Part shown: in pieces, positions 2,895 through 63,636 of the stretch | Layout: each line of letters begins with the position of its first letter | Position numbering within the stretch: the first letter of the stretch is position 1 | NCBI GenBank assembly: GCA_038065275.1 | Contig: JBBTRH010000013.1 | Span: 32,106 to 96,105, forward strand | Reading direction: 5' to 3' | Source: Patescibacteria group bacterium | GTDB lineage: Bacteria > Patescibacteriota > Patescibacteriia > SBBC01 > CAIJZX01 | Length of the DNA stretch: 64,000 nt | Notes under the pieces: generated by a model | Seen by the model: the letters and a program-made list of their open reading frames with translations, nothing else | The model's database searches: none | What the model was told of the DNA's origin: nothing | Translations under genes and position numbers: made by a program

Positions 2895-4334
2895 CTACAT
2901 ACACAAACAGTAGCGGGAGCCGACCTGATTTGCGCAAGTGGTGGACACTGACGCTTTTATCCAAGCGCCGATACATATTTGTCCAGCGGACGCGCAAGCC
3001 CCATCACAGGAACCAGAAGAAACCTCGGCACCGGTCACTATTTCGTAGGCGCCTGCTGTATTGCCTTTGGTGGTTCGGCCGACGAACCTCGCGGCAAAAT
3101 TATTACCGCCAGCTCCCGTGCCCTGCTGAACATAGAGCCCGTAAGTTGTTTGCCCCGTGGTCGCGTTCCCACCCTGTGCTTCAATGGCGGCCGGACCATT
3201 TGCCCATAAACCACTGCCCTCATTTGATCCATTGGCTGTGATCGCTGTACCCTTATTGAGAACATTATTGTTGTTATTTACCACCTCCAATGTCGCCCCA
3301 GACCTGCCAGCCCCGACCATTTTTGATGCGCCACTAAAATATCCGGCAAAACCTTGTGAGTTCTCCTGTTGAGCATAAATCGCCGATCCGGCGGCATTGT
3401 TATTATAAGTATCAACCGTATCTAAAACATTCCCGCCGTAACTAGCTGGACTAATGCCTCGCATCACTACAATTTCCGCCTGCGGCCAGACATTTGTCGG
3501 ACCACCCAAACTGACTGGCATTCCGGAAATATTACCGGCTGTTAGCACTTGCTGTAATGTCGGCGTAGCGCCCCCCGGGGGCCAAGAAGAATTACACACG
3601 CCACTTAGACAGAGCGATCCGACCGTCAGTTCGCCGGGGATATTTACTTTACCATTGGTGGAATCAATGGTGAGCCGTTCAAAATTATCATTAAAAATTC
3701 TGAAGTATTTATCGTTACTGTCAATTCTCCAGTCAAGAGTTCCGCCCGTGCCTTTTTGGATGGTCATTTCTCCGCCCTCAATACTGGCTGGAACTGCCGC
3801 GGTTAGCGTCAGGTAATTAGCTGTCAGTTGAGCGGTGTTGTTAAGTATTATGCTGGTAGTCGATGTATTGCCGGTGTCAAGTACTTGTTGGAGGTTTTGA
3901 GAACCCGCCCCCCCGCCTGGCCAGACATTGCGGCAGTCCGCGCCAATACATAGACGGCCGCCTTTAACGTCCCCAACTGTTTCTATTTTACCCGGGATGT
4001 TTAGGCTAGTAACCAGACCGTCTTTATAGAACTTGGCGTAGTTAACTGCCCCGGTATCCAACGATCCCGGCCGCAGGTAGATATCCCCGGTACTGGCGAC
4101 ATCCCGTCCGGCATTACCAATCTCCATCACCGCCGAGCCGTCGGCGGGCACAACCGCGATCACCCCCTGGTACACGCCGAGCTTGGTAAACGGCTGGTTG
4201 CCGGAACCGCCGGTGATCGGGCCGGCCACTACCGGCTGGACGGCGAAAAATATGGCCGCGGCCGCTAAGGAAGCCAGCGCCGCATTTCGGAAAATTCCGG
4301 TTTTTCGCTTTGTCTTAGCCGTAGCCATACGCAT
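2895..4334 (-). CDS. secreted or membrane-anchored protein, paralog 2 (same N-terminal module; internal duplicated LQQVL..GN and C..C..WPGGG repeats; Cys-rich C-terminus)
   Basis: N-terminal TM/signal. Conserved module is shared with 1417..2565. Internal tandem duplication (SQNLQQVLDTGNTST / TPTLQQVLTAGNISG; CIGADCRNVWPGGG / CLSGVCNSSWPPGG). Looks tail-fibre or adhesin-like. Confidence 0.6.
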   Translation of the reverse strand: MRMATAKTKRKTGIFRNAALASLAAAAIFFAVQPVVAGPITGGSGNQPFTKLGVYQGVIAVVPADGSAVMEIGNAGRDVASTGDIYLRPGSLDTGAVNYAKFYKDGLVTSLNIPGKIETVGDVKGGRLCIGADCRNVWPGGGAGSQNLQQVLDTGNTSTTSIILNNTAQLTANYLTLTAAVPASIEGGEMTIQKGTGGTLDWRIDSNDKYFRIFNDNFERLTIDSTNGKVNIPGELTVGSLCLSGVCNSSWPPGGATPTLQQVLTAGNISGMPVSLGGPTNVWPQAEIVVMRGISPASYGGNVLDTVDTYNNNAAGSAIYAQQENSQGFAGYFSGASKMVGAGRSGATLEVVNNNNNVLNKGTAITANGSNEGSGLWANGPAAIEAQGGNATTGQTTYGLYVQQGTGAGGNNFAARFVGRTTKGNTAGAYEIVTGAEVSSGSCDGACASAGQICIGAWIKASVSTTCANQVGSRYCLCM

Positions 4335-4437
4335 ACTGCAGTATACACGATTTCGGCCCGGGTGCTAACCAACGATAGTTGACGGTGTTTGGACTGTCAT
4401 ACCGCCGGGGCCGCGGACCCCGACCCGCCGGCCGGCC

Positions 4438-4698
4438 CTATAGTTCCGGTTCCTGGGATGAAGATTGATCCCGAAAGATGCCGAAATTTTCCAGCGCCCC
4501 GTATTTTTTCTCAAGTTGCCGCGCCGTCGGTTCCTCCGATCCAAGCAGGTCCGTCCGTAGCCAAATTTGATGCAACTCGACGTACCGGCTGGCGTCCTCG
4601 TTAGACCACCCCTGCGATTCTAACCAGCGGATCCGCTGGAACACGGATTCGGCTTCCTGTTGCTGACGCTGGCGGCGTTCTTCGGAGTCCTCGGGCAT
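4438..4698 (-). CDS. hypothetical small protein at the 3' end of the suf operon
   Basis: 86 aa ORF directly downstream of sufU on the same strand. No recognised motif. Confidence 0.35.
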   Translation of the reverse strand: MPEDSEERRQRQQQEAESVFQRIRWLESQGWSNEDASRYVELHQIWLRTDLLGSEEPTARQLEKKYGALENFGIFRDQSSSQEPEL

Positions 4699-4714
4699 AG
4701 TGAGCAGTATAGCA

Positions 4715-5086
4715 CTAGTGATGACCGATCGCTTGCTGGACCGCTTCCAGCGGCAGGGTAGCGCACCTCAGCCGCGCCGGATTGACTTCGACGCCGAGTA
4801 TGGCCAGGATATCGTCGTTGGTCAGCTTGGCGATTTCTGATCGGTTCAAGTTTTTCAACTTCTCGCTCAACATCGAGGCCGACGCCATCGTAATGGTGCA
4901 CCCGCGTCCAGTGAATTTTACATCGCTCACGTTGTCATCGGCGTCAAACACTAAATAAAAATCTAGCTCATCTCCGCATAGCGGGTTGGCCGCGTGGGCT
5001 TTAGCTTGAGCGTCAGGCAACTCCCCGAAATTACGAGGGTGTTTGTAGTGATCTAGTATATTTTGTTGGTACATTTCGAGACTCAT
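4715..5086 (-). CDS. sufU: Fe-S cluster assembly scaffold / sulfur acceptor SufU (NifU-like N-terminal domain)
   Basis: LDHYKHPRNFG, CGD, and GCTISMASASMLSE motifs typical of IscU/SufU. Adjacent to sufS. Confidence 0.85.
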   Translation of the reverse strand: MSLEMYQQNILDHYKHPRNFGELPDAQAKAHAANPLCGDELDFYLVFDADDNVSDVKFTGRGCTITMASASMLSEKLKNLNRSEIAKLTNDDILAILGVEVNPARLRCATLPLEAVQQAIGHH

Positions 5087-6408
5087 GCGAACACCTCTTG
5101 AATTTTTTTAATCCCTCGCACCAACGCGTCAATATCTTCCTTGGTGTTGTAAAGGTAGCATGACGCCCGCGCCGTGGCTACCAATCCGAACTTTTGGTGG
5201 AGCGGCATGGCGCAGTGGTGCCCGGCCCGGACAGCGACCCCCTGCTCGTCCAGGATCGAGCCGATGTCGTGGGGGTGAACCCCGTCAATCGTGAAAGCGA
5301 AGATAGCGCCTCTTCCCTTCCCCTGCTCCCCTTCGGCAAGCTCAGGGTCGCCGCCCCCTTTCGAATTCGGAAGGGGGCTGTCCGTAGGACTGGGGGAAGG
5401 GGTTAGAACCCCAAGCACAGCAACGCCAGGAATCTTTCCAAGCTGCTCCAGCCCATACCGCGTCAATTCCTGCTCATGTTTCCATACATTCTCCATCCCC
5501 AAGTTCGATAAGTAATCCACCGCCGCCCCTAACCCAATCGTTCCGGCAATATTCGGCGTGCCCGCTTCAAATTTCCACGGCAACTCGTTCCATGTCGCTT
5601 TCTCTTTCGTCACTTCCAGAATCATGTCTCCGCCGCGCTGATACGGTTCCATCTGTTCTAACAGTTCCTGCTTGGCGTAGAGCACGCCGATGCCGGTCGG
5701 CCCGAGCATTTTATGTCCGGAGAAAACCAGAAAATCAGCGTCGAGATCTTGGACATCAACCGGCATGTGCGGCACGGATTGCGCGGCATCAACGAGGATC
5801 TTCGCGCCGACCGCGTGCGCTTTGCGCGCCAGCGTTTTGACATCGTTCACGGTGCCCAACACATTCGACATCTGCGTCACCGCTACCAGTTTTACGCCTT
5901 TAAGCAAATCATCAATGTTTGAGAGGTCGAGTTGGCCGTCATCAGTGATGGGGATCCAGCGTATTAAGCCGGCCCCCTCCTCAGTCGAGGAGGGGCGAGG
6001 GGGTGGTGTTGCCAAACCTTGGGCAACCGCAAACCACGGCACAATGTTCGCGTGGTGTTCCATTTCGGACAACAGAATTATATCCCCCGACTTCAGCGTT
6101 TTCCCAAAGCTGTCTGCCACCAAGTTGATTGCTTCGGTCGTCCCGCGGACAAACACAATTTCTTTGGTGGACTTGGCGTTGATGAATTTGCGGATTTTCT
6201 CGCGTGCTCCTTCGTACGCATCCGTGGCTTTCACCGATAATTCGTAGACGCCGCGGTGGACGTTCACACCATATCGTTCGTAATATTCCCGCTCGGCGTC
6301 AATGACCTGTTTTGGTTTCAATGACGTCGCGGCCGAATCTAAATACACCAATTTCGGATGGTGACCGAAAATGGGGAAGTCTTTTTTCAAGTCGGCAATG
6401 TCAAACAT
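5083..6408 (-). CDS. sufS: cysteine desulfurase SufS (class V aminotransferase); ORF may extend to 6456
   Basis: HANIVPW, SGHKMLGPTGIGVLY and RAGHHCA motifs. Likely start is MFDIADLKKDFPIF at 6408. Contains Pro/Ser-rich low-complexity insertions. Confidence 0.88.
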   Translation of the reverse strand: MFDIADLKKDFPIFGHHPKLVYLDSAATSLKPKQVIDAEREYYERYGVNVHRGVYELSVKATDAYEGAREKIRKFINAKSTKEIVFVRGTTEAINLVADSFGKTLKSGDIILLSEMEHHANIVPWFAVAQGLATPPPRPSSTEEGAGLIRWIPITDDGQLDLSNIDDLLKGVKLVAVTQMSNVLGTVNDVKTLARKAHAVGAKILVDAAQSVPHMPVDVQDLDADFLVFSGHKMLGPTGIGVLYAKQELLEQMEPYQRGGDMILEVTKEKATWNELPWKFEAGTPNIAGTIGLGAAVDYLSNLGMENVWKHEQELTRYGLEQLGKIPGVAVLGVLTPSPSPTDSPLPNSKGGGDPELAEGEQGKGRGAIFAFTIDGVHPHDIGSILDEQGVAVRAGHHCAMPLHQKFGLVATARASCYLYNTKEDIDALVRGIKKIQEVFA

Positions 6409-6410
6409 GA

Positions 6411-6803
6411 TTAGATTTTCATCATCCGACGACAGTTTTTGTGTCCGCAGCGGCATCGCACATCTTCGCCAAAGGCCATTTCGTATCCATAATCACTCGT
6501 GATCTCCTCGCCTTTGCAAATGGTCCGAATCGCGCGATCACCCATCCAGCGTCGATCAATGTGCGTATTGGGAAGGCAGGAATGGTTGATGAATCTAGCC
6601 GGAGGAGCATAGAGAATGTACCGGCCACGAGTAAACGCTGAAACATAGGTCTGTTCTTTTCTGGACAGTTTCTTTACCTCCGCGAGAGTTAATATTTTCG
6701 CGCCGATCCAGTGTAAAACAATTTCACCCTTACGAAAACTACGGTTAGCAAACGCGCCCTGTCCATGAATCTTTGACTTCTTCACCACGACGTCGGCGTT
6801 CAT
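6411..6803 (-). CDS. SET-domain protein (putative protein-lysine methyltransferase) embedded in the suf operon
   Basis: NHSCLPN, E..SDYGY and post-SET CRCGHKNC motifs. 130 aa, which is the minimal bacterial SET size. Confidence 0.8.
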   Translation of the reverse strand: MNADVVVKKSKIHGQGAFANRSFRKGEIVLHWIGAKILTLAEVKKLSRKEQTYVSAFTRGRYILYAPPARFINHSCLPNTHIDRRWMGDRAIRTICKGEEITSDYGYEMAFGEDVRCRCGHKNCRRMMKI

Positions 6804-7483
6804 ACCAGAGAAAACTTATTTTTCATCACGTCAATAATTCTGGTTTGCCATATTATATCAAGTTTCGAAAGAATAGCGGTAACGAACCCCTGTACAATCA
6901 TCGCCTCCGCCTGTGCCTCCGACAGCCCCCGCGACATCAAATAAAATTTCTGGGCTGGGTCAACGGGCTTGGCCGTGGCTCCGTGGCTGGCTTTGACTTC
7001 ATTGGCTTCAATTTCCAGGCCAGGAATTGCCTTGGCTTTCGCGTCGGCGGATAATAGGAGAGAATCTTGCTGGAGGAAATCATTACTATTCTGCGCGTTT
7101 TTCAGGATTTTAATCATGCCGTTGAATTCCAGCGATGACTTTCCAGCCAGCACTGCCTTGAACTCGGTTCGTCCCCGAGTATTCGGCGCGGCATGGGTAG
7201 TGTCGAGTTTGAGATTGAGCACATCATCCCCACGGCCGAGAAACAATCCGATAATATCCACCTCCGCGCCCTCGCCCGCTAGAACAATTTCACGATGACG
7301 GCGTTCGGGTAATGACAACAAAACTGGCACGATGTACAAGAGCTTCTGACCGGCTTCAACCGTTATTCGCTTGATAGGTTCGGTCAGGATGTCGACGAAC
7401 GAACTCAGCCTCGTCCTCTCCTCCGATGAGGAGGGGTGGATTGCCGCCTGGCGAGACGGGGTGGTCCAAAAAGCTGTGTTCAT
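6800..7483 (-). CDS. sufD: Fe-S assembly protein SufD (short SufB/D-family protein)
   Basis: C-terminal SufBD-family signature ([32 protein letters not shown]). Sits between sufB and sufS. Confidence 0.7.
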
Positions 7484-8889
7484 CCAACCGACCCTTCCAT
7501 TTCCAACTGAATTAACTTATTTAACTCCACTGCATACTCAAGCGGTAATTCCTTCACGATGGGTTCTATGAATCCACTCACAATCAAACCCGTCGCCGTC
7601 GGCTCGTCCAATCCGCGCGACATCAAGTAGAACAACTGTTCCTCCCCGACTTTCGAAACCGTCGCCTCGTGACCGAGCGTCACTTCCTTAGCTCGAATCT
7701 TCATGGTCGGGTACGTATCAGATCGTGATTTGTCATCAAGAATTAGCGCATCGCACTTCACATTCGACTTTGACCCCTTCGCATTTGGCGCCATGTGCAC
7801 TAGGCCGCGATATGAAGTTCGGCCACCGTCTTTGCAAATAGACTTTGAGGTAATGATCGACGATGTTTCCGGCGCGTTGTGAATCGCTTTGCCGCCAGCG
7901 TCTTGGTGTTGGCCCGCGCCGGCGAAAGCGATTGACAATACTTCACCATGTGCTTTCCGGCCGACGAGATACACACTCGGATATTTCATCGTCACCCGCG
8001 AACCTAAATTGCCGTCAATCCACTCCATCGTTGCCTCTTCTTCGACCCGCGCCCGCTTCGTCACGAGATTATACACGTCGCGCGACCAATTCTGAATCGT
8101 GGTGTAGCGCACGCGCGCGCCCTTAGCCACGAAGATTTCCACGACTGCCGCGTGCAGTGAGTCGCTGGCATACACCGGCGCGGTGCAACCTTCCACGTAA
8201 TGTACGTACGAGCCTTCCTCGGCAATAATCAGCGTCCGCTCAAACTGGCCCATGTTCTTGGCGTTGATGCGGAAGTAGGCTTGGAGCGGCATCTCGACGC
8301 GGACGCCCTGCGGTACGTACACGAACGACCCGCCGGACCAGACCGCACTGTTGAGCGCCGCGAATTTGTTATCATTGGGCGGAATGAGCGCGCCGAAATG
8401 TTTTTTCACGATGTCCGGATAGTCACGAAGCGCCGTGTCCATGTCCGTAAAAATTACGCCCTGCTTACTTAATGAACTAATTAACGAATGATAAATAACC
8501 TCACTATCATACTGCGCCCCGACGCCAGCCAGCCACTTTTTTTCTGCTTCAGGAATTCCTAAACGATCAAAGGTAGCTTTCATTGATTCCGGTACATCAT
8601 CCCACGTCCGTCCCTGCTCGACCACGGGTTTCATGTAATAATATATTTCGTCGAAGTCGATGTGCGACAGGTCGGCTCCCCACAACGGCATCTGTTTTTT
8701 CTTGAACACATTGTACGCCTGCAACCGCTTCTCGGTCATCCAGCCCGGCTCTTTCTTCCACAGCGAAATCGCTTTGACCACGTCTTCGTTCAATCCCCGC
8801 GGCGTCTGGCCGACTGACACGTTGGGCATGCTGAAGCCCCACCGGTAGGTGTCGAGGGATTTGGTTACTTGTTGGGCTTTAGTGGACAT
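7480..8889 (-). CDS. sufB: Fe-S cluster assembly protein SufB
   Basis: 469 aa. Typical SufB N-terminus and a C-terminal SufBD block ([20 protein letters not shown]). Confidence 0.9.
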
Positions 8890-9028
8890 TGGTTGGTGTA
8901 GAAAACATCCTTATGATAGAATCTATATAGTTGGTCTGACTTGCAATTTGGCTGCCCCGCAATGGTCGTGGTCCATGCCCGAAGGTCAGATTCATCTAGA
9001 CAGAGCTCGCCAAGTGGAGCCTCGCCAA

Positions 9029-9109
9029 CAGGAGTTGGCGGCTCCACTTGATACCGGACGGGGCGGAACCCCGCATCCGTCCCGCCAGCGGGCGGGACCG
9101 GTGCGCGGG
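9029..9109. repeat. GC-rich structured intergenic element, copy A (CAGGAGTTGGCGGCTCCAC ... AACCCCGCATCCGTCCCGCCAGCGGGCGGGACCGGTGCGCGGG)
   Basis: Near-identical 50-nt core and 19-nt 5' block shared with 63522..63636. Nested stems GTCCCGCC/GGCGGGAC and CCCGC/GCGGG. Confidence 0.7.
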
Positions 9110-9198
9110 TGAGTCACTGGTGGGGTGGTGTCCAGAGACTTTGGGGTTCCACCTTCTGCATCCCGGGCGGCAAGCGCAAGCGAACCGCCCTTCTTTTT

Positions 9199-9930
9199 TT
9201 AGATAACGAATTCATATCCTGTCTTTTCAAGCTCCATTGCCAGTTCCGGCCCGCCCGTCTTCACGATTATCCCACCAATGAGCACCTGGACGACATCGGG
9301 TTTAATGTAATTGAGTAATCGTTGGTAGTGGGTAATGATCAACATACCGCGCTCGGGACTTCGTAGCGCGTTGACTCCGTCGGCCACGATTCTCAAGGCG
9401 TCGATATCCAACCCCGAATCCGTTTCGTCAAGAATGCACATCGACGGCTGTAATATCGCCATCTGCAGAATTTCCGCCCGCTTTTTTTCGCCCCCGGAAA
9501 ATCCTTCGTTGACGCCGCGGGTGATAAAATCTTCGTTCATGCCCATGGTCTTCATCTTATCCTGCATCATCGCGAAAAACTCCGGCACGGCCATTGGTTT
9601 GGTCCGTCGAGCATTCAGCGCCGTCCGTAAAAAGTTTCCCATCGATACGCCGGCCACTTCCGGCGGGTACTGGAACGACAGGAACAGTCCAAGTTTTGAA
9701 CGGTCGTCTGGACTCATCACCAGGACATCCTGCTCTTTGTATGTCACGCTACCGCTCGTCACTTCGTATTTCGGGTGACCCATGAGGGTGGCCGCCAAGG
9801 TCGATTTCCCCGATCCGTTCGGCCCCATGATGGCGTGGACCTGGCCGGCGGGGACGGTCAATGATAAACCTTTGAGAATCTCCTTATTCTCAACAGTGAC
9901 GTTTAGATTTGTAATGACCAGCTGATTCAT
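9199..9930 (-). CDS. sufC: Fe-S cluster assembly ATPase SufC
   Basis: Walker A GPNGSGKST, ABC signature LSGGEKKR, and a SufC-like length of 243 aa. Confidence 0.92.
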   Translation of the reverse strand: MNQLVITNLNVTVENKEILKGLSLTVPAGQVHAIMGPNGSGKSTLAATLMGHPKYEVTSGSVTYKEQDVLVMSPDDRSKLGLFLSFQYPPEVAGVSMGNFLRTALNARRTKPMAVPEFFAMMQDKMKTMGMNEDFITRGVNEGFSGGEKKRAEILQMAILQPSMCILDETDSGLDIDALRIVADGVNALRSPERGMLIITHYQRLLNYIKPDVVQVLIGGIIVKTGGPELAMELEKTGYEFVI

Positions 9931-10382
9931 GCCGGTAATTCCTTAACCGCGTGTTTTTGTAAACTTCCGTCGTCAGCCAGCCAAACTTCTGCCTCAAACT
10001 TTTTGCCTTGGATCAATCGCGGCAACCAAACACGGTCGTCCGCCCAACATTGATCATACGGAATGGCCTCGACCGGCCACCACTGCGGTCGCATTTCCTC
10101 GGTCTCGCGGGGTTCACCTTGGTACTCCTCCGTGCGAAAAACATGGACCAACCATTCTTTTCCGCCGGGGTCGTGAAAATGGATCCGCCCCTGTGGCTCA
10201 GCCAGCGTCACGTCCACCTCAATCTCCTCCTTTACTTCGCGCTTCGCCGCCGCTCGCGCTGTTTCTCCTGCTTTAAGCTTCCCGCCCGCCCCGTTCCACT
10301 TCCCCTGACCAAACCCTCGCTTCTTCATGGCGAGTAGAACCTGAGTGCCTTTGAAAATATATACGAGCGTGCCTTCAGTCAT
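9927..10382 (-). CDS. Nudix hydrolase
   Basis: Nudix box GKLKAGETARAAAKREVKEEIEV (Gx5Ex7REVxEE). Confidence 0.78.
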   Translation of the reverse strand: MTEGTLVYIFKGTQVLLAMKKRGFGQGKWNGAGGKLKAGETARAAAKREVKEEIEVDVTLAEPQGRIHFHDPGGKEWLVHVFRTEEYQGEPRETEEMRPQWWPVEAIPYDQCWADDRVWLPRLIQGKKFEAEVWLADDGSLQKHAVKELPA

Positions 10383-10405
10383 GCTTATTGCCTAAATCCT
10401 TCACC

Positions 10406-10798
10406 TTAAATCTTCTCTCTTAAATCTTTCAACTTTTTCAGGCATCCCCCGCACAACCCGCCGGCTCGCAGGGTGGCCACAAACACGCGTTGTTGACCGA
10501 ACATCCGCCGGTTGACGCTGGTCGGCAGGGTTTGGCTTTTTAGGCGCTGCGTTTTCCCGCACCGTTGACAGCTGAACTCCGCTTCGTGCCAGGCGTGGCC
10601 GATATAGCGACGCCCGCCATCGAGTCCTTCCACCGTGAAAATCTCGCCGCGGGCGACCAGGGTGTCAAGATTGCGGAATAGAGTCGCCTCAGCCAACTGC
10701 GGCAACCGGCGGCGAAGATCGGCCGAGGTCAGCGGCTCGGGAGCGAATTTCACCGCCCGGAGGATGGCTTGGCGTTGCGGACTGTGGCGGCGGCGCAT
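10406..10798 (-). CDS. Fur-family metalloregulator (Fur/PerR/Zur-like), first gene of the suf cluster
   Basis: N-terminal wHTH. H..H..CxxC and C-terminal CGGC metal sites. Size is 130 aa. Confidence 0.7.
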   Translation of the reverse strand: MRRRHSPQRQAILRAVKFAPEPLTSADLRRRLPQLAEATLFRNLDTLVARGEIFTVEGLDGGRRYIGHAWHEAEFSCQRCGKTQRLKSQTLPTSVNRRMFGQQRVFVATLRAGGLCGGCLKKLKDLREKI

Positions 10799-10804
10799 GG
10801 ACTT

Positions 10805-10825
10805 AAGTGAGAGTGACTCTCATTT
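10805..10825. promoter_or_regulatory. palindromic operator-like site AAGTGAGAGTGACTCTCATTT immediately upstream of the fur-family gene start
   Basis: 9/10 bp inverted repeat around a central G, abutting the ATG (10796-10798). Candidate autoregulatory box. Confidence 0.35.
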
Positions 10826-10934
10826 AGCGTAACATAATGTTTCCGGGTTGTCGACCCGCAATTGCGCGCCTCGAGTTGCTTTACACCGCCACGACAAAAA
10901 ATCCTGCCCACCGGCGGTGCGTCTCAAAATCGCC

Positions 10935-11063
10935 TTATTTTCCCGTAAACAGGTAGGCCACCGCGGCGACCGTACCGACGATCAAGCCGATGGCCAGGAT
11001 CAGGTAGATGGCCACGGAGTGTTTAGTCTTCGTGCTCGTGGTAGTGTTGGTCGGGGCGGACAT
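10935..11063 (-). CDS. small membrane ORF (42 aa, MSAPTNTTTSTKTKHSVAIYLILAIGLIVGTVAAVAYLFTGK)
   Basis: ATG directly follows the inverted-repeat element exactly as at dnaG, rpoD and groES. A single TM helix is predicted. Below the 60-aa ORF-track cutoff. Confidence 0.35.
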   Translation of the reverse strand: MSAPTNTTTSTKTKHSVAIYLILAIGLIVGTVAAVAYLFTGK

Positions 11064-11146
11064 ATCCCGTTAGAAACTACCTCTAATCGGCGTTGAATAC
11101 ATAGGGAAGAGATGTTGTGTCCCGCACTAGTTTCTAACGGGACATA
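11064..11146. repeat. long inverted-repeat element (ATCCCGTTAGAAACTAC ... TAGTTTCTAACGGGACAT) abutting the start codon
   Basis: Read directly. Same family as 34334, 36460 and 50223. Confidence 0.8.
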
Positions 11147-11265
11147 GGCCGGCAGTGTAGCACACTCACCCGGCCCCACGGAAGCCATGGGTGCCCGGCC
11201 TTCGTCCCGACGCGTGAGAGCCGGTCGGGACTTCGGCGGAGGAGGCTAAAACCGTAGAGCCGGGT

Positions 11266-12063
11266 TCACCGACTGACAACGAGCGCGATTTTGGCGCCCT
11301 GGTCGACGTCGCCGCCGTTCCAGTCGTGCATGGCGTTCATAATCACTTCCGGATCGTACAGGTAGTCGGCGCCGCGGCGCGTGCCGGGGTCGTTAGTGAT
11401 GAACCGGCCGTCCTTGGTGTACCCTTTCAAGACCAGCATATGATAGAGCGGGCCGGGCCGTTTGAAGTTCGGGTTTTTAAGCAACCGACCGGCGGCCGGC
11501 ACGACGACTGGTTGCCCAGCGGCGATGGCTGATTTGAGTTCGGCCACGGTCGGGTTGGTGAGCAGTTGGACCGAAGTGCCGCCATACAATCCCTCAACCA
11601 TCTGCGCGGTTTGGGCCGCCGTAGTGTCCTTGAAAAAACCGAAGGTGTCGAGTTCCCATTGTTTAATCTGCTGGAGGGCTGATTCGGCATCGGCGGCGTC
11701 AGCGATGCCGCGACCCTGGAAGAAGCGTCCGACCATCAGGACCGCCGCTTCCTCGCAAAATTCCTCGTGTTCCGCATCCCAGTTGGCGTTCGGCGCCTGA
11801 CTGGTGAACGGCACGGCCAGGTTTTTCTCCCGCGGCATCTCCGTCACCGGGATCCGGACCGTAACATCGTGAGGACGGTTGACGTCCGGCGGAGCGACCT
11901 GGTTCAGCGGCGGGGCGGTGGTGTTGATGGACGCCGGTTCGGCGGTCGGAATTTTCGGCGGCCTTAGGTCAGACCACCAGGAGCGAAGTCGTGAACTCGA
12001 CGCGCCCAGCCACAAGCCGGCCGAGACGGCGACGACCATGAACGCGAGGGTCGGGCGGGCCAC
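11266..12063 (-). CDS. membrane-anchored peptidase C39-like domain protein (BtrH-like cysteine peptidase fold)
   Basis: N-terminal TM. FCEEAAVLMV (Cys motif) and a later YHMLVLKGY...D His motif resemble the C39-like family. Confidence 0.45.
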   Translation of the reverse strand: MARPTLAFMVVAVSAGLWLGASSSRLRSWWSDLRPPKIPTAEPASINTTAPPLNQVAPPDVNRPHDVTVRIPVTEMPREKNLAVPFTSQAPNANWDAEHEEFCEEAAVLMVGRFFQGRGIADAADAESALQQIKQWELDTFGFFKDTTAAQTAQMVEGLYGGTSVQLLTNPTVAELKSAIAAGQPVVVPAAGRLLKNPNFKRPGPLYHMLVLKGYTKDGRFITNDPGTRRGADYLYDPEVIMNAMHDWNGGDVDQGAKIALVVSR

Positions 12064-21519: not shown

Positions 21520-21802
21520 TCACTAATTTACACTAAACTATGACTTAGTTCGACGCTTTTTCTAACGCATCTCTAGCTCGAACGTTCTTTCTCCACACTA
21601 ATTGCCTAAACCGTTCTTCGGAACGGCATGGCATCACAATAACCCTGCAAGGTATAGAGCTCCTAGTCAGAGCATCCTTGCAGGGTCATGCGCCGAAAGG
21701 TGTATGGGTGGTCGTAAGGCCATCGCTGGCTAGGGGCTTTGTGTATATACGCACGATACACAAAAACCCTTCCATGATCACCTATCAGAAAGGGAATTCT
21801 CT

Positions 21803-63521: not shown

Positions 63522-63636
63522 CAGGAGCTGGCGGCCTCACCGAGATGCGGTGCGGAGCCACGTAGAAGCCAAGCGCTTTACGTGGCGGAGCGTAACCCCG
63601 CATCCGTCCCGCCCGCTGGCGGGACTGGTGCGCGGG
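63522..63636. repeat. GC-rich structured intergenic element, copy B (same core as 9029..9109 plus a ~40-nt hairpin insertion)
   Basis: CAGGAGCTGGCGGCCTCAC ... AACCCCGCATCCGTCCCGCCCGCTGGCGGGACTGGTGCGCGGG. Loop differs from copy A (CGCT vs AGCG) while the stem is kept. Confidence 0.7.

Follow-up and report, generated by a model that had tools for sequence, protein, structure and literature searches.

A suf operon of Patescibacteria with a candidate Fur-type operator and lineage-variable cargo genes, among them an optional SET-domain gene

In Escherichia coli the sufABCDSE operon is repressed by Fur. In Streptococcus mutans the Fur-family protein PerR represses sufCDSUB through a box in the promoter (PMC11631912). 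The locus described here, a suf operon on the minus strand of contig JBBTRH010000013.1 from a Patescibacteria group bacterium, occupies positions 4438–10825 of a 64-kb stretch of DNA that is referred to throughout as the window. It resembles these Fur-controlled systems in containing SufC, SufB/D, a type II SufS and SufU, and in having an inverted repeat at the promoter. As in those systems, the genes can be expected to be induced when iron is limiting or under oxidative stress. Unlike those operons, it encodes the regulator as its own first gene, apparently with a single target within the window, its SufD is of half length, and its junctions hold variable small genes (a Nudix hydrolase and a SET-domain protein here, others in relatives). 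The locus is probably a Fur-type autoregulated stress operon that carries the SET gene as optional cargo. Fur-family control of suf operons and minimal SET enzymes are both known in kind; what is added is the observation of cargo slots, and the locus does not represent a new kind of system.

The regulation suggested for the operon centres on the DNA just upstream of the regulator gene. A 21-bp palindrome, AAGTGAGAGT-G-ACTCTCATTT, lies at 10805–10825 and is symmetric at 9/10 positions. The initial annotation of this DNA, made from the letters alone, had placed a palindrome right at the start of the regulator gene; the repeat does head the gene, but its symmetry is imperfect and 6 nt separate its end from the ATG. 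The window contains nine 10-1-10 palindromes in which 9/10 or more positions pair, so that the one at 10805–10825 is by itself statistically unremarkable, and its weight comes from conservation in relatives. Related operons were collected through the short SufD, by a scan of a genome collection, and through homologues of the regulator. In the 13 loci that span the region upstream of the regulator there is exactly one box each (13/13), which starts 0–9 nt downstream of a conserved promoter of the form TTGAC.-17-TA...T. The promoter of the window (10854–10826, minus strand) is predicted to be of the sigma-70 type, with a −35 hexamer TCGACA (10854–10849), a 17-nt spacer and a −10 hexamer TACGCT (10831–10826), immediately after which the box begins. 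Twelve related loci have the same arrangement immediately in front of their box. This promoter was not flagged by a consensus promoter scanner, because its −10 hexamer matches the consensus at only 3/6 positions. The clade consensus of the box is TTAtTGAGAAt-N-aTTCTCAaTAA, and its two arms covary between loci: TGAGAAT/ATTCTCA in L016, TGGGACT/AGTCCCA in L017, TGAGAGT/ACTCTCA in the window and GTGGGAGT/ACTTCCAC in L106. Such symmetric changes are the behaviour expected from a dimer-binding site. The suggestion that the palindrome is an autoregulatory box gains from this comparison: given its conservation and the symmetric changes in 13 loci, it is very probably the operator of the regulator.

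Operators of the Fur family have been described as 7-1-7 inverted repeats (PMC3293774). The candidate in the window, with the core TGAGAGT-N-ACTCTCA, has this architecture, together with TTA/TAA flanks and an overlap with the promoter. The boxes of Bacillus subtilis are TGATAAT-N-ATTATCA for Fur, TTATAAT-N-ATTATAA for PerR and TCGTAAT-N-ATTACGA for Zur. Against these sequences the clade half-site TGAGAAT agrees at 6/7 positions with Fur, at 5/7 with PerR and at 4/7 with Zur. Between the clade consensus TGAGAAT-N-ATTCTCA and the classical Fur box there is one difference per half-site, G instead of T at position 4, and L010 and L020 each carry a half-site that matches or nearly matches that of Fur. 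The box of L010, TGATAAT-C-ATTCTCA, is almost a classical Fur box, and the earlier view that the palindrome stands apart from every canonical consensus is not borne out. In the window the box has diverged further still, and changes in one arm are matched in the other. No second copy of the operator scored above chance in the 64-kb window, either with the exact pattern at up to 3 mismatches or with a position weight matrix (PWM) built from 10 boxes, and pattern and PWM searches of the related loci found none upstream of the superoxide dismutase gene or other genes. The regulator therefore looks specific to this operon within the available sequence. A 42-aa hydrophobic open reading frame (ORF), MSAPTNTTTSTKTKHSVAIYLILAIGLIVGTVAAVAYLFTGK, at 10935–11063 on the minus strand, ends approximately 80 nt upstream of the suf promoter; ORFs with similar ends are seen at the equivalent place in L011, L017, L102 and L103.

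The regulator itself (10798–10406, minus strand, 130 aa) is a divergent member of the Fur family. Its match to the Pfam FUR family (PF01475) is marginal, at 27.6 bits with a cut-off of 23.1, and its best matches among sequences in the PDB are Zur, Fur and PerR, with weak E-values. All of the top 50 Foldseek matches of the AlphaFold2 (AF2) model, which has a mean predicted local distance difference test score (pLDDT) of 79, are Fur, PerR, Zur, Nur or Mur proteins. The conserved motifs are RHTxQR, ATVYRNL, GHxFHE and two CxxC pairs. These pairs, C77/C80 and C116/C119, correspond to the structural Zn(Cys)4 site and are invariant in close homologues; in the regulators of L018 and L020 the second pair is CxxH. 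Of the canonical regulatory metal ligands only a part is present, in the conserved GHxFHE motif (H68, H71 and mostly E72).

It is possible, though we think it less probable than not, that this protein is a PerR-type peroxide sensor and that the unit is a peroxide-stress regulon and not an iron-responsive one. The B. subtilis PerR is the first Foldseek match of the model, and the best NCBIfam model is the Mn-dependent PerR. The genes that accompany the regulator have an antioxidant and damage-control character, with an AhpC/TSA peroxiredoxin gene directly after the regulator in five relatives (L016, L017, L018, L104 and L106), the MTH1-type Nudix gene, and an adjacent superoxide dismutase gene; PerR is also the repressor of sufCDSUB in S. 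mutans (PMC11631912). However, the scores against the PerR equivalogs NF047406 and NF052545 do not reach the cut-offs (38.2 against 200 bits for the first, the best model, and 22.7 against 180 bits for the second), and Zur and Fur rank above PerR in the profile search. PerR proteins have a conserved regulatory His in the DNA-binding domain. No conserved His was seen in that domain in the homologue alignments, as compared with the textbook PerR ligands, and the half-site TGAGAAT, by the B. subtilis boxes given above, is closer to the Fur box (6/7) than to the PerR box (5/7).

In the mechanism that we favour, a Fur-type autoregulated stress operon, the genes would form one stress-inducible transcription unit. 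It would start from the sigma-70-type promoter, followed directly by the 7-1-7 Fur-family operator, and its first gene would encode the cognate Fur-family repressor, so that the unit would be autoregulated. A metal-loaded repressor dimer would occupy the box, and as the box lies directly after the −10 hexamer the bound repressor would cover the start of transcription. The repressor would come off the DNA when iron limitation and/or peroxide led to loss or oxidation of its regulatory metal, and the SufBC(D)-SufS-SufU machinery for iron–sulfur (Fe-S) assembly would then be made together with damage-control enzymes, here the MTH1-type Nudix hydrolase. The SET gene would be co-transcribed and co-regulated with suf in the lineage of the window. 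In this scheme the co-transcription, the action of the repressor at the box and the response to iron or oxidative stress are inferred. Genomes of Patescibacteria are tiny and encode few regulators, and there is no genetics in culture for the group; a conserved unit of promoter, operator and repressor is therefore one of the few directly testable circuits in these organisms.

The genes of the operon were identified from the ORF listing and from Pfam and NCBIfam profile searches of the window proteins, and their order on the minus strand is the one given in the initial annotation. After the regulator come the Nudix gene (10382–9927, 151 aa, Pfam NUDIX) and sufC, which encodes the ATPase (9930–9199; TIGR01978, 351 bits, cut-off 213). 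A structured, GC-rich spacer (9198–8890) then separates sufC from sufB (8889–7480; TIGR01980, 709 bits, cut-off 346). There follow a short sufD (7483–6800, 227 aa), the SET gene (6803–6411, 130 aa), sufS (6408–5083; TIGR01979, 551 bits, cut-off 475), sufU (5086–4715; TIGR01994, 102 bits, cut-off 92.5) and a lineage-specific ORF of 86 aa (4698–4438), the last gene of the unit. SufB, SufC, SufS and SufU thus all score above their NCBIfam equivalog or subfamily cut-offs. SufD fails the test for a full-length SufD, as it matches only positions 121–267 of TIGR01981 (148 bits, cut-off 222) and positions 93–232 of Pfam SUFBD_core. This short form (~200–227 aa) is common to all relatives; it corresponds to the C-terminal half of the SufBD core, and the N-terminal region is gone. 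SufS contains two low-complexity insertions rich in Pro, Ser and Gly (5968–6009 and 5308–5403), and at these sites the relatives have insertions of very different lengths or no insertion.

Adjacent genes overlap by 4 nt at Nudix/sufC, sufB/sufD, sufD/SET and sufS/sufU. These are four of the six 4-nt overlaps in the window, which has ~41 same-strand gene pairs. Together with a scan that found no promoter- or terminator-like site in the spacer, they agree with the single, tight, co-directional unit that had been proposed. The SET gene had been described as joined by 4-nt overlaps on both sides. It does share ATGA with sufD, but there is no such overlap with sufS: the SET stop codon TAA (6413–6411) is followed by 2 nt and then by the sufS ATG at 6408, a start that is backed by homologue alignments. 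An alternative sufS ATG at 6456 would give a 46-nt overlap with the SET gene.

The closest relatives recovered are mostly Candidatus Kerfeldbacteria, and the host is a Kerfeldbacteria-like Patescibacteria, represented by a metagenome-assembled genome. The order of the backbone in the relatives was read by tblastn of the window proteins, and the comparison covers 17 distinct operons with the same backbone. Complete regulator-Nudix-SufC-SufB-SufD-SufS-SufU operons are present in L010–L012, L014–L017, L020 and L102, of which L012 and L102 have no Nudix gene after the regulator. The backbone is partial in L018, L023, L104 and L106, where contigs end, and in L103, which has no sufD. L102 is the close, syntenic relative: its regulator is 67–69% identical to that of the window, and it shares the upstream genes for an M17 aminopeptidase and a C39-like peptidase. 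In many related loci a gene for an Fe/Mn superoxide dismutase lies just downstream of the operon, usually in convergent orientation. By this comparison the regulator, the operator and the Suf backbone are kept across at least 17 related operons.

Between the genes of this backbone lie position-specific slots that, as read from gene order, are filled with different small genes in different lineages. The slot after the regulator takes the AhpC/TSA peroxiredoxin or extra Nudix genes. Between sufC and sufB there is a VOC/glyoxalase or a GIY-YIG gene (the latter inside the operons of L014 and L018), and the spacer in the window. The sufB|sufD slot holds Nudix, HIT, nucleoside-deoxyribosyltransferase-like, class I methyltransferase, pyrophosphatase or AstE/AspA genes, the sufD|sufS slot SET, GNAT or VOC genes, and the sufS|sufU slot GrpB. 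Every cargo family is confined to one junction (L010–L023 and L102–L106). The theme of the cargo is damage control, directed at oxidized nucleotides, peroxides and reactive electrophiles. A trace of how such genes may move is found in L103 (12325–13312), where sufB is followed by an AstE/AspA-like cargo gene and this in turn by a repeat of the final ~34 codons of sufB. The repeat encodes the same peptide with many synonymous differences, in an operon without sufD. The duplicated end suggests that recombination in the conserved backbone genes carries cargo from one related operon to another; homologous exchange of this kind would keep cargo in place without a functional tie to its neighbours. 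A conserved, essential backbone with interchangeable small enzymes at its junctions is an unusual evolutionary pattern, and it offers a reasoned guess as to the conditions, iron or oxidative stress, in which these orphan enzymes are called for.

The Nudix gene is less variable than the rest of this cargo. Of the 13 related loci in which the interval from regulator to sufC is covered, 10 have an MTH1-like gene following the regulator, and this gene is thus close to a core member of this type of operon, not the oddity that the initial annotation took it for. The window protein matches the structures of vertebrate MTH1/NUDT1 with E = 1e-37 and ~50% identity over 127 residues, and the Nudix box and the MTH1 substrate-pocket motifs WNGxGGK and WADD (WxDD) are conserved in the alignment. 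It does not reach the NCBIfam cut-off for the bacterial MutT equivalog (36.7 against 97.9 bits). On this basis it is predicted to be an oxidized purine nucleoside triphosphatase of the MTH1 type. MTH1/NUDT1 is an animal hydrolase of 8-oxo-dGTP and 2-OH-dATP; the window protein differs from it in being bacterial and in being encoded by the second gene of a suf operon, and its activity is predicted from the likeness.

The SET gene is found at sufD|sufS in 5/17 operons, those of the window, L001, L002, L008 and L023, and its presence in this slot in several genomes means that the arrangement is recurrent and not an accident of assembly. The SET proteins concerned are 78% (L001), 68% (L002), 48% (L008/L019, Kerfeldbacteria) and 51% (L023–L025) identical to that of the window. 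In L002 the SET gene is preceded by a GNAT gene, and in L023–L025 it is followed by a small hydrophobic ORF. In the remaining 12/17 operons the slot has no SET gene. It is empty, with sufD and sufS adjacent, in L010, L015, L016, L018, L020 and L021. It holds a VOC/glyoxalase-family gene in L011, L014 and L102, a GNAT gene in L012 and L103, and the gene for a 249-aa protein in L017. The syntenic L102 thus has a VOC gene where the window has SET, and L016, which has no SET gene, is sister to the SET-bearing L023 in 195/200 bootstraps. The gene is therefore not a conserved part of the operon; its absence from close relatives with otherwise equivalent operons, which the initial annotation had itself named as contrary evidence, is what is observed. 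A tree of concatenated SufB/D/S/U sequences is poorly resolved within the main clade, except for L016 + L023, so that gains and losses of SET could not be counted. In a neighbour-joining tree of 82 SET sequences only those of the window, L001 and L002 group together, and the suf-linked SET genes may have one origin or several.

The protein has the features of an intact enzyme. The motifs RFINHSCLPN, EEITSDY and CRCGHKNC, which contain the NHSCxPN, catalytic Tyr and post-SET CxCxxxxC signatures noted at the outset, are present and are conserved across homologues. PF00856 is found in all 33 SET homologues (57.3 bits in the window, cut-off 22.4), and N73, H74, S75, N79 and Y105 are invariant in 13 homologues. 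The post-SET zinc site, C76, C117, C119 and C124, is at least 90% conserved and aligns with the post-SET regions of KMT2D and KMT2C; the SET protein called in L008 (P0011) has no post-SET motif. A profile of the family matches the SET domains of KMT2D, KMT2C and KMT2A (MLL) with E = 1e-19 to 1e-18, ahead of NSD, SETD2, ASH1L and vSET, which makes KMT2/MLL the closest SET subfamily (E = 1e-19). The AF2 model of the window protein (pLDDT 82) gives a Foldseek probability of 1.00 and template modelling (TM) scores of 0.65–0.74 to MLL1/3/4, NSD, SETD2 and ASH1L. The ratio of non-synonymous to synonymous substitution (dN/dS) is 0.11 against the 78%-identical orthologue in L001. The gene is thus an intact SET + post-SET gene of the MLL type under purifying selection, for which methyl transfer from S-adenosylmethionine is predicted from sequence and model. 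The family has at least 546 metagenome matches. The GC content of the gene (0.483; 0.527 at third codon positions) is the lowest in the operon, a difference that is too small to argue for recent transfer.

The likeness to KMT2/MLL extends to the fold (TM ~0.7), ~30% identity, NHSC, the catalytic Tyr and the CxCxxxxC zinc site. In contrast to KMT2/MLL, the protein is a stand-alone bacterial one in an Fe-S operon, with no partner-binding regions and no host histone substrate. In size it is similar to vSET of PBCV-1 (1n3j), with 130 against 119 aa. Known bacterial SET proteins have mostly been discussed as effectors that act on host chromatin (PMC3980110). A full-text literature search returned no paper that joins ‘SET domain’ and ‘suf operon’, and SET domains appeared together with the Candidate Phyla Radiation only in passing. 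The interest of the present protein lies in its being a real bacterial MLL-type enzyme with a predicted non-histone substrate, putatively co-regulated with Fe-S repair, although excitement should be tempered.

An alternative to the passenger role is that the SET enzyme is a dedicated accessory factor of the SUF system, methylating SufS, SufU, SufB/D or an important Fe-S client at a lysine and so tuning sulfur transfer or scaffold turnover under stress. The placement of the gene is in favour of such a role, with an identical sufD|sufS junction in five lineages, ATGA coupling to sufD and a distance of 2 nt to sufS. So are the purifying selection on it, the SET proteins of L008 and L023, which fall outside the clade of the window and are compatible with independent captures at one place, and the GNAT acyltransferases that occupy the same slot in L002, L012 and L103. 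However, 12/17 related operons, including the sister and syntenic relatives, have no SET gene, and the slot may instead hold a VOC/glyoxalase-type gene, which is no lysine modifier. No lysine specific to SET-bearing lineages was found in SufB, SufC, SufD, SufS or SufU. Most members of the SET family lie in unrelated neighbourhoods: a single distinct locus linked to suf turned up in the 80 best metagenome SET loci, and the commonest neighbour is not Suf but Nudix, followed by HIT and histidine phosphatase, beyond which neighbourhood clustering of the SET loci found no consistent partner. Cargo that keeps to one slot is expected from homologous exchange without a functional link. A role as a SUF accessory factor is therefore unlikely. 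We would give equally little credence to the broader proposal of a stress-induced modifier of the Fe-S assembly line, captured possibly repeatedly at sufD|sufS and acting on a Suf protein or key Fe-S client or, less likely still, on a sulfur metabolite made by SufS; were it correct, ultra-small bacteria would control Fe-S biogenesis at a level not known before, by methylation of lysine or sulfur.

The least probable alternative, and a very doubtful one, is that the SET fold here methylates a small molecule, for instance a metabolite of sulfur or amino acids close to the step of cysteine desulfurase. The analogy is with BurB, a methionine S-methyltransferase that has a SET fold (9l4v, with S-methylmethionine and S-adenosylmethionine), which has the same fold in a bacterial metabolic context, shows that SET enzymes need not act on proteins and matches here with TM 0.73 and a family-profile E = 3e-8, for a gene immediately upstream of sufS; but BurB is far less similar to the protein than the lysine methyltransferases are (22% identity, against ~30% and E = 1e-19 for KMT2/MLL), the protein retains an intact post-SET Cys3 + NHSC zinc site, which is typical of enzymes that methylate protein lysines, and its gene is an optional member of the operon.

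The comparison speaks for the SET gene as a passenger in the suf operon and against a new Suf component, and the enzyme most probably methylates a protein lysine on a target other than an obligatory Suf component. Several observations weigh against the picture of a Fur-type autoregulated operon with optional cargo. SET always occupies the same slot, sufD|sufS, in the five lineages, and some of the suf-linked SET proteins are no closer to each other than to those outside suf. The pattern could thus represent repeated capture at sufD|sufS and hence selection for linkage of SET with SufS or SufD. In L002 the slot holds both GNAT and SET, two families that include lysine modifiers. With regard to the regulator, its regulatory ligands are partial (H68, H71 and E72) and its similarity is equally weak to Zur, Fur and PerR. 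Finally, co-transcription across the 309-nt spacer is deduced only from the absence of a predicted promoter or terminator, by a scanner that missed the main promoter.

The sufC–sufB spacer is peculiar to this genome, as the relatives have 5–50 nt or a cargo gene at the junction. The ~300-nt structured gap of the initial annotation is real: it measures 309 nt and folds far better than shuffled sequence (−134 kcal/mol, z = −4.8). Searches against Rfam gave nothing credible in the gap or the leader, either over the whole window at gathering thresholds or over 4300–11300 at E up to 1. By blastx against the cargo proteins of relatives and the operon's own proteins no decayed gene was found in it, and the scan for promoters and terminators, which had overlooked the main promoter as well, detected neither there. 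A ~50-nt GC-rich palindromic element lies in the gap at 9059–9109, with the core GTCCCGCC-N4-GGCGGGAC, and recurs with 90% identity at 63586–63636, in an intergenic position after a 597-aa gene; it looks like a repeat of the repetitive extragenic palindromic (REP) type. The first hairpin after the sufC stop codon (~9160–9195) has no U-tail on the sense strand. Read on the plus (antisense) strand, the same hairpin is followed by TTCTTTTTTT and forms a canonical intrinsic terminator, in the wrong direction for the operon; it may mark the end of an antisense transcript or be a relic of an inverted insertion. The gap is regarded as a REP-like or scar region.

The 86-aa protein at the end of the unit matches no Pfam or NCBIfam family. 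It has two homologues of the same length with 79–84% identity, one of them encoded in L107, 16 nt downstream of sufU; a weak homologue (38%) follows sufU in L102. Just downstream of the operon, at 2895–4334 on the minus strand, is the gene for a 479-aa protein rich in Gly, Asn and Thr, with an N-terminal hydrophobic segment and no Pfam match; this gene has two promoter-like sites of its own. Elsewhere in the window, at 21603–21724 on the plus strand, there is a structured RNA, a full-length match to the LOOT RNA motif (Rfam RF03000) with 80.9 bits and a gathering score of 46.4.

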